Positions 29,243-32,188 of a stretch of 33,594 nt of DNA are shown here, piece after piece. The notes beneath the pieces were generated by a model that had not been told where the DNA came from, did not search any database, and worked only from the letters and a program-made list of their open reading frames with translations. The stretch comes from a virus (lineage: Duplodnaviria; Heunggongvirae; Uroviricota; Caudoviricetes). A program made the position numbers and the translations under genes. Position 1 is the stretch's first letter, and each line of letters opens with the position of its first letter. Location of the stretch: the IMG/VR virus record IMGVR_UViG_2684622582_000002, positions 1 to 33,594 of that record. The stretch is one strand, 5' to 3'.

Positions 29243-32188
29243 ATGACAGACATTACAGCCAATGTTGTAGTGAGTATGCCTTCGCAACTCTTCACTATGG
29301 CGCGTTCTTTTAAAGCCGTAGCCAATGGCAAAATTTATATCGGTAAAATTGACACTGACCCGGTAAATCCTGAAAACCAGATTCAGGTTTATGTAGAGAA
29401 CGAAGACGGTTCTCACATTCCCGTTTCGCAACCAATAATGATTAACGCTGCTGGATATCCGGTATATAACGGACAGATTGCCAAATTCGTAACCGTGCAA
29501 GGCCATTCTATGGCTGTTTATGATGCGTATGGTACACAGCAGTTCTATTTTCCTAATGTGCTGAAGTATGATCCTGATCAGTTACGGCAGCAATTAGAAG
29601 ACCCAGATGGAGCGAATAAATACCCAAAACTTCAGATAGCAAGATGGAGAGACAGTTATGATGTAAGAGGTTGGGGGGCTATTGGTGATGGTGTTCATGA
29701 TGATACATCAGCTCTATCAGAATTACTTTCTGTTGCAACAGGTGGTGAAAAGATAGATGGGCGAGGGCTTACTTTTAAAGTATCAACTCTTCCAGATGTC
29801 AGTCGATTTAAAAATGCTCGTTTTTTATTTGAGAGAATACCGGGTCAGCCTCTTTTTTATGCTTCTGAAGATTTTATCCAGGGAGAGTTATTTAAAATTA
29901 CAGATACACCGTGGTACAACGCCTGGACGCAGGATAAAACGTTTGTATATGACAATGTCATCTATGCGCCTTTTATGGCTGGAGACCGCCATGGTGTAAA
30001 TAACCTCCATGTTGCATGGGTTCGCTCAGGAGATGACGGGAAGACCTGGACAACGCCGGAATGGCTTACAGATTTACATGAAAACTATCCCACAGTTAAC
30101 TATCACTGCATGAGTATGGGGGTTGTCAGAAATCGCCTTTTTGCTGTAATTGAGACGCGGACCGTGAGCGGAAATAAACTGCAGGTTGCAGAGTTGTGGG
30201 ATCGCCCAATGAGTCGCAGCCTTCGCGTTTATGGTGGTATAACGAAAGCAGCAAATCAGCAAGTCGCTTATATTCGCATTACTGATCACGGATTATTTGC
30301 TGGTGATTTTGTCAACTTCTCAAACTCTGGTGTTACAGGTGTTACCGGGAATATGACGGTGACTACTGTTATTGATAAAAATACTTTTACAGTTACGACG
30401 CAAAATACCCAGGATGTGGATCAGAATAACGAGGGTAGATACTGGAGTTTTGGTACATCATTTCACTCGTCACCATGGAGAAAAACCAGTCTTGGAACTA
30501 TTCCTTCTTTTGTTGACGGAAGCACTCCTGTTACTGAGATTCACAGTTTTGCGACGATTAGCGATAACAGTTTTGCTGTTGGCTACCATAATGGTGATAT
30601 TGATCCACGCGAGCTTGGGATACTCTATTTCTCTGATGCTTTCAGTTCTCCTGGTAGCTTTGTTCGCAGACGCATACCTGTAGAATATGAGGCGAATGCA
30701 TCTGAGCCATGTGTAAAATATTATGATGGCATTCTGTATCTGACGACCAGGGGGACATTAAGTACTCAACCCGGTAGTTCATTGCACAGAAGCTCTGATT
30801 TAGGTACATCATGGAATTCTCTTCGCTTCCCAAATAATGTTCATCACTCAAACCTTCCTTTTGCCAAAGTTGGCGATGAGCTGATTATTTTTGGCAGTGA
30901 GCGCGCATTTGGTGAGTGGGAAGGAGGAGAACCTGATAACCGTTATGCAGGAAATTATCCAAGAACATTTATGACCAGAGTTAACGTCAATGAGTGGAGT
31001 CTGGATAATGTAGAGTGGGTTAATGTTACTGATCAGATTTATCAGGGCGGAATAGTTAACTCTGCGGTTGGTGTTGGTTCAGTTTGTATCAAAGACAACT
31101 GGCTGTACTACATTTTCGGTGGGGAAGACTTTCTAAACCCATGGAGCATAGGGGATAACAACAGAAAATATCCTTATGTTCACGATGGTCACCCGGCTGA
31201 TTTGTATTGTTTCAGGGTGAAAATTAAACAGGAAGAATTTGTTTCAAGGGATTTTGTCTACGGAGCCACTCCTAACAGAACGCTTCCTACTTTTATGTCG
31301 ACGTCAGGCGTGAGGACGGTTCCTGTACCCGTTGATTTCACAGATGATGTTGCCGTCCAGTCACTGACTGTCCATGCAGGTACATCAGGACAAGTTCGCG
31401 CGGAAGTCAAACTTGAGGGTAATTACGCCATTATTGCGAAGAAAGTACCGTCTGATGATGTTACCGCTCAGAGATTAATCGTTAGCGGCGGTGAAACAAC
31501 GTCTTCAGCAGATGGTGCAATGATAACGTTGCATGGTTCCGGAAGCAGTACTCCACGTCGCGCGGTATATAACGCACTCGAACATCTTTTTGAGAACGGA
31601 GATGTTAAACCTTATCTTGATAATGTAAATGCTCTTGGTGGTCCGGGAAACAGGTTCTCGACAGTTTATCTTGGCTCCAATCCTGTGGTTACCAGTGACG
31701 GAACATTAAAGACAGAGCCGGTCTCTCCTGACGAAGCATTGCTGGATGCCTGGGGTGACGTCAGGTATATCGCTTATAAATGGCTGAACGCTGTCGCTAT
31801 AAAGGGGGAAGAAGGGGCGAGGATACATCATGGTGTAATCGCGCAGCAACTTCGTGATGTTCTTATTTCTCACGGACTCATGGAAGAAGAAAGCACAACA
31901 TGCCGCTATGCCTTTCTTTGCTATGACGATTATCCCGCAGTATATGATGACGTCATTACTGGCCAAAGGGAAATGCCGCTGACTGATAATGACGGGAGCA
32001 TCATTGTTGATGAGGATGATAATCCAGTGATGGTAATGGAAGACATCATTGAGCGCGTTGAAATAACGCCAGCAGGATCTAGATGGGGGGTCAGACCTGA
32101 TCTCTTATTCTATATCGAGGCGGCATGGCAGCGCAGAGAAATAGAAAGAATAAAAGCTAGGTTAGACTTAATAGAAGGGAAGCACTAA
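29243..32188 (+). CDS. Tailspike endosialidase with P22-type head-binding N-terminus and C-terminal intramolecular chaperone domain, 981 aa
   Basis: N-terminal ~110 aa ([11 protein letters not shown]...[11 protein letters not shown]...VLKYDPDQ) match P22 gp9 head-binding domain; two Asp-boxes SGDDGKTW (30026..30049) and SSDLGTSW (30791..30814); C-terminal Ser-x4-Lys (TSDGTLK, Ser codon 31694..31696) and GVIAQQL motif typical of self-cleaving tailspike chaperone domains. Confidence 0.8.

Follow-up and report, generated by a model that had tools for sequence, protein, structure and literature searches.

A probable K1 capsule endosialidase tailspike, allelic to CUS-3 siaK1, in a P22-like prophage

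The tailspike gene and its prophage setting

We analysed 33,594 nucleotides of viral DNA (the window, meaning the whole stretch under study), in which positions 29243..32188 of the plus strand form a single uninterrupted frame, 981 codons long before its stop codon, encoding a precursor with a computed mass of 109.4 kDa. This is a complete tailspike gene, an allele of siaK1 from phage CUS-3 (CP000711; proteins ABQ88383 / CAJ29292), with 99.0% nucleotide identity, equal protein length (981 aa) and 968 of 981 residues identical (98.7%), leaving 13 amino acid differences. The CUS-3 host of the reference record is Escherichia coli RS218, and GenBank annotates the product as 'endosialidase tailspike protein' with the GO term endo-alpha-sialidase activity under evidence code IDA (Stummeyer et al. 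2006, PMID 16689790). Judged by sequence identity, the gene is already known: it is the tailspike reported for prophage CUS-3 of E. coli K1, and the present copy is another natural allele. A review describes the CUS-3 tailspike as a 109 kDa protein that combines a P22/Sf6/HK620-type N-terminus with a K1F-type catalytic domain (PMC5380687). At least 80% of the gene is present in 181 of 5426 complete E. coli genomes, in some at 99.9% identity, with the annotation 'phage tailspike protein'.

Sequence inspection identified a ribosome-binding site, GGAG (29231..29234, plus strand), 8 nt 5' of the tailspike ATG. Similarity to CUS-3 falls sharply 5' of this start codon, to 60 of 101 positions identical without gaps, and beyond that it is about what chance would give. 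A scan for promoters and terminators around the gene yielded promoter counts close to background and nothing convincing. Inspection by eye directly 3' of the stop codon, at approximately 32192..32268 and 5' of the neuO promoter region, showed two imperfectly matching inverted arms of about 15 nt (TTTCGTTGGCGTCAA ... TTGACGTCAACGAAA), separated by about 47 nt; the terminator scan did not detect them. Open reading frames that overlap the gene in a different frame or on the opposite strand, such as 29135..29506 (minus strand) and 30372..30683 (plus strand), fall within the strongly conserved tailspike coding frame and were for that reason attributed to chance.

The surrounding DNA is that of a P22-like prophage, with a block of virion and late genes. 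The window matches Lederbergvirus records at 95-97% over the terminase, portal, coat, DNA stabilization/head completion and DNA-transfer genes, and these P22-like virion genes lie upstream of the tailspike together with an Mnt repressor, while neuO, a CUS-3 cargo gene, lies downstream. The domain order of the tailspike and the downstream position of neuO are as in CUS-3, whereas the 5' neighbour differs, being an Arc/Mnt repressor here (28845..29096, minus strand) and the antirepressor Ant in CUS-3. Two small open reading frames between the DNA-transfer genes and Mnt (27789..28304, minus strand; 28409..28828, plus strand) carry lipoprotein-like signals recognized by eye, LLAGC and LLSGC. Neither gave a Pfam match above cut-off, and they could be prophage cargo genes.

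The downstream gene neuO (32342..33048) encodes a polysialic acid O-acetyltransferase. Its start, ATG TC, is followed by eight copies of AAGACTC (32347..32402), and the hexapeptide-transferase body, read from 32404, is out of frame with that ATG. As eight copies are not a multiple of three, neuO, a known contingency gene, is in phase OFF. The corresponding tract has 19 copies in CUS-3 of RS218 versus eight in the window, and we infer 33 copies for strain SCU-124, which has an in-frame neuO of 882 nt.

At the 3' end of the window (33252..33594), a lambda attachment core, GCTTTTTTATACTAA, occupies 33580..33594 and is preceded by a lambda/434-like P arm at 88-94% identity. Of the CUS-3 integrase gene, the final 84 nt are retained at 33288..33371 and the rest is absent. 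Related prophages adjoin ybhB and the bio operon. Given the lambda core and the integrase remnant, the prophage appears to occupy the lambda attachment site beside ybhB and bio, not argW, which marks the prophage end in CUS-3. Among the 5426 complete E. coli genomes, only 10 have the junction between neuO and the lambda arm, IAI39 and CE10 being two of them.

Some related prophages at this chromosomal site are degraded. For E. coli IAI39, the annotation shows only a C-terminal fragment of the tail fiber gene, lacking the N-terminus, next to a partial IS629 transposase. Together with the out-of-frame neuO in the window, this is what could be expected if the window held a decaying prophage remnant in which an intact-looking gene yields no working tailspike. 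We regard that as very unlikely: the frame retains the full 981 codons of active CUS-3, the 13 substitutions relative to CUS-3 SiaK1 fall on none of the named functional residues, catalytic or cleavage, discussed below, the entire P22-like virion module is present upstream, and the frameshift in neuO is normal, reversible phase variation.

Domain architecture and catalytic region

Six Pfam domains tile the tailspike, all above curated cut-offs, in the order found in endosialidase F (endoNF, gp17 of phage K1F) plus an N-terminal P22 Head_binding domain. This N-terminal module, a P22-family particle-binding domain, covers aa 1-113 (29243..29581, plus strand; PF09008 1-113/113, E 1.6e-66, 222 bits) and ends in the conserved hinge YDPDQ (aa 109-113). 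PDB matches for this module are Sf6 gp14, P22 gp9 and 1lkt, and the N-terminal structures of the Sf6 and P22 tailspikes match aa 1-118 with E values from 1e-50 to 1e-67. The original prediction had assigned the first ~110 residues to a capsid-attachment domain of the P22 gp9 type. The family assignment stands, with 84 of 112 residues identical to P22 gp9 (75%), and can be refined: the domain is closer to Sf6 gp14, with 104 of 113 residues identical (92%). The YDPDQ hinge is common to all three proteins. Past the hinge the resemblance to Sf6 and P22 ends, as both continue into receptor-binding parts that are, by their PDB entry names, endorhamnosidases, unlike the window tailspike. These receptor-binding parts are right-handed beta-helices.

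Endosialidase similarity begins immediately after the hinge. In a blastp comparison with endoNF, the alignment starts at aa 114, equivalent to endoNF 214, and many tblastn matches also start at 114, within a neck or linker of aa 114-145 (29582..29677, plus strand). On the same strand there follow the endosialidase N-terminal extension (End_N_terminal, aa 146-212, 29678..29878; PF12218, E 8.8e-37), the catalytic six-bladed beta-propeller (End_beta_propel, aa 213-662, 29879..31228; PF12217 1-367/367, E 1.1e-232), a beta-barrel inserted in the propeller (End_beta_barrel, aa 324-406, 30212..30460; PF12195, E 1.2e-46) and the stalk (End_tail_spike, aa 663-817, 31229..31693; PF12219 1-160/160, E 7.5e-78). 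The prediction of a propeller in the central region was thus accurate for aa 213-662 and had overlooked the extension, the barrel and the stalk. The remainder, aa 818-981 (31694..32185), matches a C-terminal intramolecular chaperone that is predicted to be self-cleaving (PF13884 at 818-878; PDB 3gw6).

Solved structures follow the same boundaries. The catalytic structures of endoNF (1v0e, 3gvl) match aa 145-817 with E = 0, the endosialidase of phi92 (4hiz) matches with E 2.6e-273, and the endoNF chaperone structure (3gw6) matches aa 698-979 with E 8e-95 / 3.6e-78. Structures at 63-92% identity therefore cover aa 1-118 and 145-979, and both they and the domain models place the three modules of the original prediction (P22 head-binding domain, propeller and chaperone) where it had proposed them. 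An NCBIfam search with the protein found no matching model, which reflects a gap in that library and no conflict with the endosialidase identity.

For residue-level comparison, full-length endoNF was taken from the K1F genome. The two proteins share 62.9% identity over aa 114-980 of the window tailspike, rising to 70% in the propeller, and have the same domain order, with catalytic and cleavage residues all conserved. They differ at the N-terminus, where endoNF has a T7-type adaptor of about 213 aa in place of the P22-type domain. Relative to endoNF, the window tailspike has inserts of 7 aa (423-429), 1 aa (858) and 8 aa (925-932), and has D819 where endoNF has N912.

The central region contains two in-frame Asp-boxes, SGDDGKTW at aa 262-269 (30026..30049) and SSDLGTSW at aa 517-524 (30791..30814). 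Both had been predicted at these positions as S-x-D-x-G-x-T-W, but the second has Ser at position 7 and fits only the looser S-x-D-x-G-x-x-W. That looser pattern occurs twice in the protein, against about 0.009 occurrences expected from its own amino acid composition. In the alignment, the catalytic residues H250, R456, E488 (codon 30704..30706), R503 (30749..30751) and R554 (30902..30904) correspond to endoNF H350, R549, E581, R596 and R647 and are all identical; the functional importance of these endoNF residues has been reported (PMC12632334). K492 is likewise identical to its endoNF counterpart, K585, another residue that has been named as critical for function.

Asp-boxes are common to many sialidases, and the general sialidase model BNR_2 gives a weak match of 17.2 bits, so an ordinary (exo-)sialidase, or some other glycosidase that does not target the K1 capsule, was considered for the central domain. 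The chance of this appears negligible. The BNR_2 score is under its cut-off of 31.4, whereas the endosialidase propeller model, with a cut-off of 24, matches from end to end with 771.9 bits; the propeller is 70% identical to that of endoNF and keeps all catalytic residues; and a direct assay stands behind the recorded endo-alpha-sialidase activity of the nearly identical CUS-3 enzyme. The central domain is therefore assigned, on sequence grounds, to the endosialidase family and not to the ordinary sialidases. The Pfam check accordingly upheld the sialidase assignment of the original prediction as an endosialidase propeller, and not in its ordinary sense. The predicted specificity for the K1 polysialic acid capsule is supported by sequence identity, as the gene corresponds to the CUS-3 prophage tailspike, published as a K1-specific endosialidase.

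One of the differences from endoNF in the stalk falls in a site for polysialic acid binding that we take to consist, in endoNF, of R837, S848 and Q853. The first two are kept as R744 and S755, and Met760 (31520..31522) aligns with Q853. The same residue is present at position 760 in the active CUS-3 reference protein, this position being absent from its 13 differences.

The C-terminal chaperone and its predicted self-cleavage

The Peptidase_S74 model (PF13884) matches aa 818-878 with 41.6 bits (cut-off 22), starting exactly at Ser818 and directly after the stalk, as expected from the original prediction of a C-terminal chaperone of this family. Structure matches for the chaperone are to endosialidases and other, unrelated tailspikes only, and not to P22 or Sf6 chains. 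Ser818 (31694..31696) lies in the context VVT-SDGTLK, with Lys823 (31709..31711) five residues on, and the motif GVIAQQL spans aa 864-870 (31832..31852) with Gly864 as its first residue. The Ser-x4-Lys dyad and the GVIAQQL motif are both located where they had been predicted. The S-x4-K pattern alone proves nothing, occurring four times in the protein against 2.2 expected, and Ser818/Lys823 were identified as the dyad because they align with endoNF Ser911/Lys916. Across this region, T817, S818, K823 and G864 align with endoNF T910, S911, K916 and G956, and all four are identical. Published work assigns self-cleavage to the Ser/Lys pair as its catalytic dyad, and describes G956 of endoNF as indispensable to the domain's function (PMC3742443). 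A literature text search linking Ser911 to endosialidase returned only an unrelated yeast paper.

Two lines of evidence place the cut before Ser818. The mature endoNF chains in solved structures end at the Thr aligned with Thr817, and for the homologous MYRF domain the N-terminal fragment is expected to stop at the residue preceding the conserved Ser (PMC3742443). Cleavage is accordingly expected between Thr817 and Ser818, which predicts 817 aa (90.7 kDa) for the mature chain and 164 aa (18.7 kDa) for the fragment that is released. Release of the C-terminus agrees with the original prediction, which had put the mature protein about 163 aa shorter than the open frame; the expected fragment is one residue longer.

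C-terminal domains are retained in some phage fibres, and cleavage of the window allele is a prediction; the domain might instead stay attached, uncleaved, as a receptor-binding tip. This seems extremely unlikely, given that Ser818, Lys823 and Gly864 align with endoNF S911, K916 and G956, that the Peptidase_S74 model starts exactly at Ser818, and that the aligned Thr is the last residue of the solved mature endoNF chains. A released chaperone is thus the favoured reading of the C-terminal domain.

Proposed function, module exchange and significance

Taken together, the protein is almost certainly the tailspike of a CUS-3-like E. coli K1 prophage (P22-like, Lederbergvirus), acting as an endo-alpha-2,8-sialidase, binding and cutting the K1 capsule's polysialic acid, and nothing in the sequence speaks against its identity as an endosialidase tailspike. 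In the proposed mechanism, aa 1-113 would dock the trimer onto the P22-type tail, and aa 146-817, comprising the extension, the propeller with its inserted barrel and the stalk, would form the enzyme that binds and cuts alpha-2,8 polysialic acid, so that the phage could reach the cell surface. The chaperone (aa 818-981) would assist the folding of three chains into the stalk and would then remove itself through Ser818/Lys823, between Thr817 and Ser818. Homology is the basis on which we expect the protein to form trimers, to cleave itself and to act on polysialic acid. Cleavage of internal alpha-2,8 linkages is attributed by proxy, through the 98.7% identical CUS-3 protein and its IDA code.

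Divergence from CUS-3 is unevenly distributed along the gene. It amounts to 5.9% of DNA positions in the first 339 nt, which encode the head-binding domain (aa 1-113), versus 0.4% in the rest of the gene. This contrast, and the presence of Mnt in place of Ant, imply that the N-terminal module and the left flank derive from a different P22-like lineage, and suggest a recombination joint near the YDPDQ hinge.

A second comparison concerns phage vB_EcoP_ZX5 (Uetakevirus). Its tail fibre (QTH80017) carries the same enzyme and chaperone cassette, 99.5% identical over nt 522-2914 of the gene (29764..32156, 2393 nt), and differs in its own N-terminal region of about 190 aa and in the last 10 codons. 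One breakpoint falls within the endosialidase N-terminal extension, at approximately aa 174, and the other some 10 codons short of the stop; neither coincides with the classical YDPDQ hinge. This match points to a very recent exchange of the cassette between phage genera. We tentatively propose, as a possibility that we consider rather unlikely, that unrelated temperate phages continue to trade the enzyme and chaperone cassette and that the CUS-3 argW integration module has also been swapped for a lambda-type one in the window prophage. If true and unpublished, this would be a small addition to knowledge of tailspike module exchange.

Endosialidases of the endoNF type are existing reagents for detecting and removing polysialic acid, and they are examples of modular tailspike evolution. 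For the host, the gene would mark a K1-capsulated, or formerly K1-associated, E. coli with a CUS-3-type prophage, making it relevant to the typing of invasive-disease strains.
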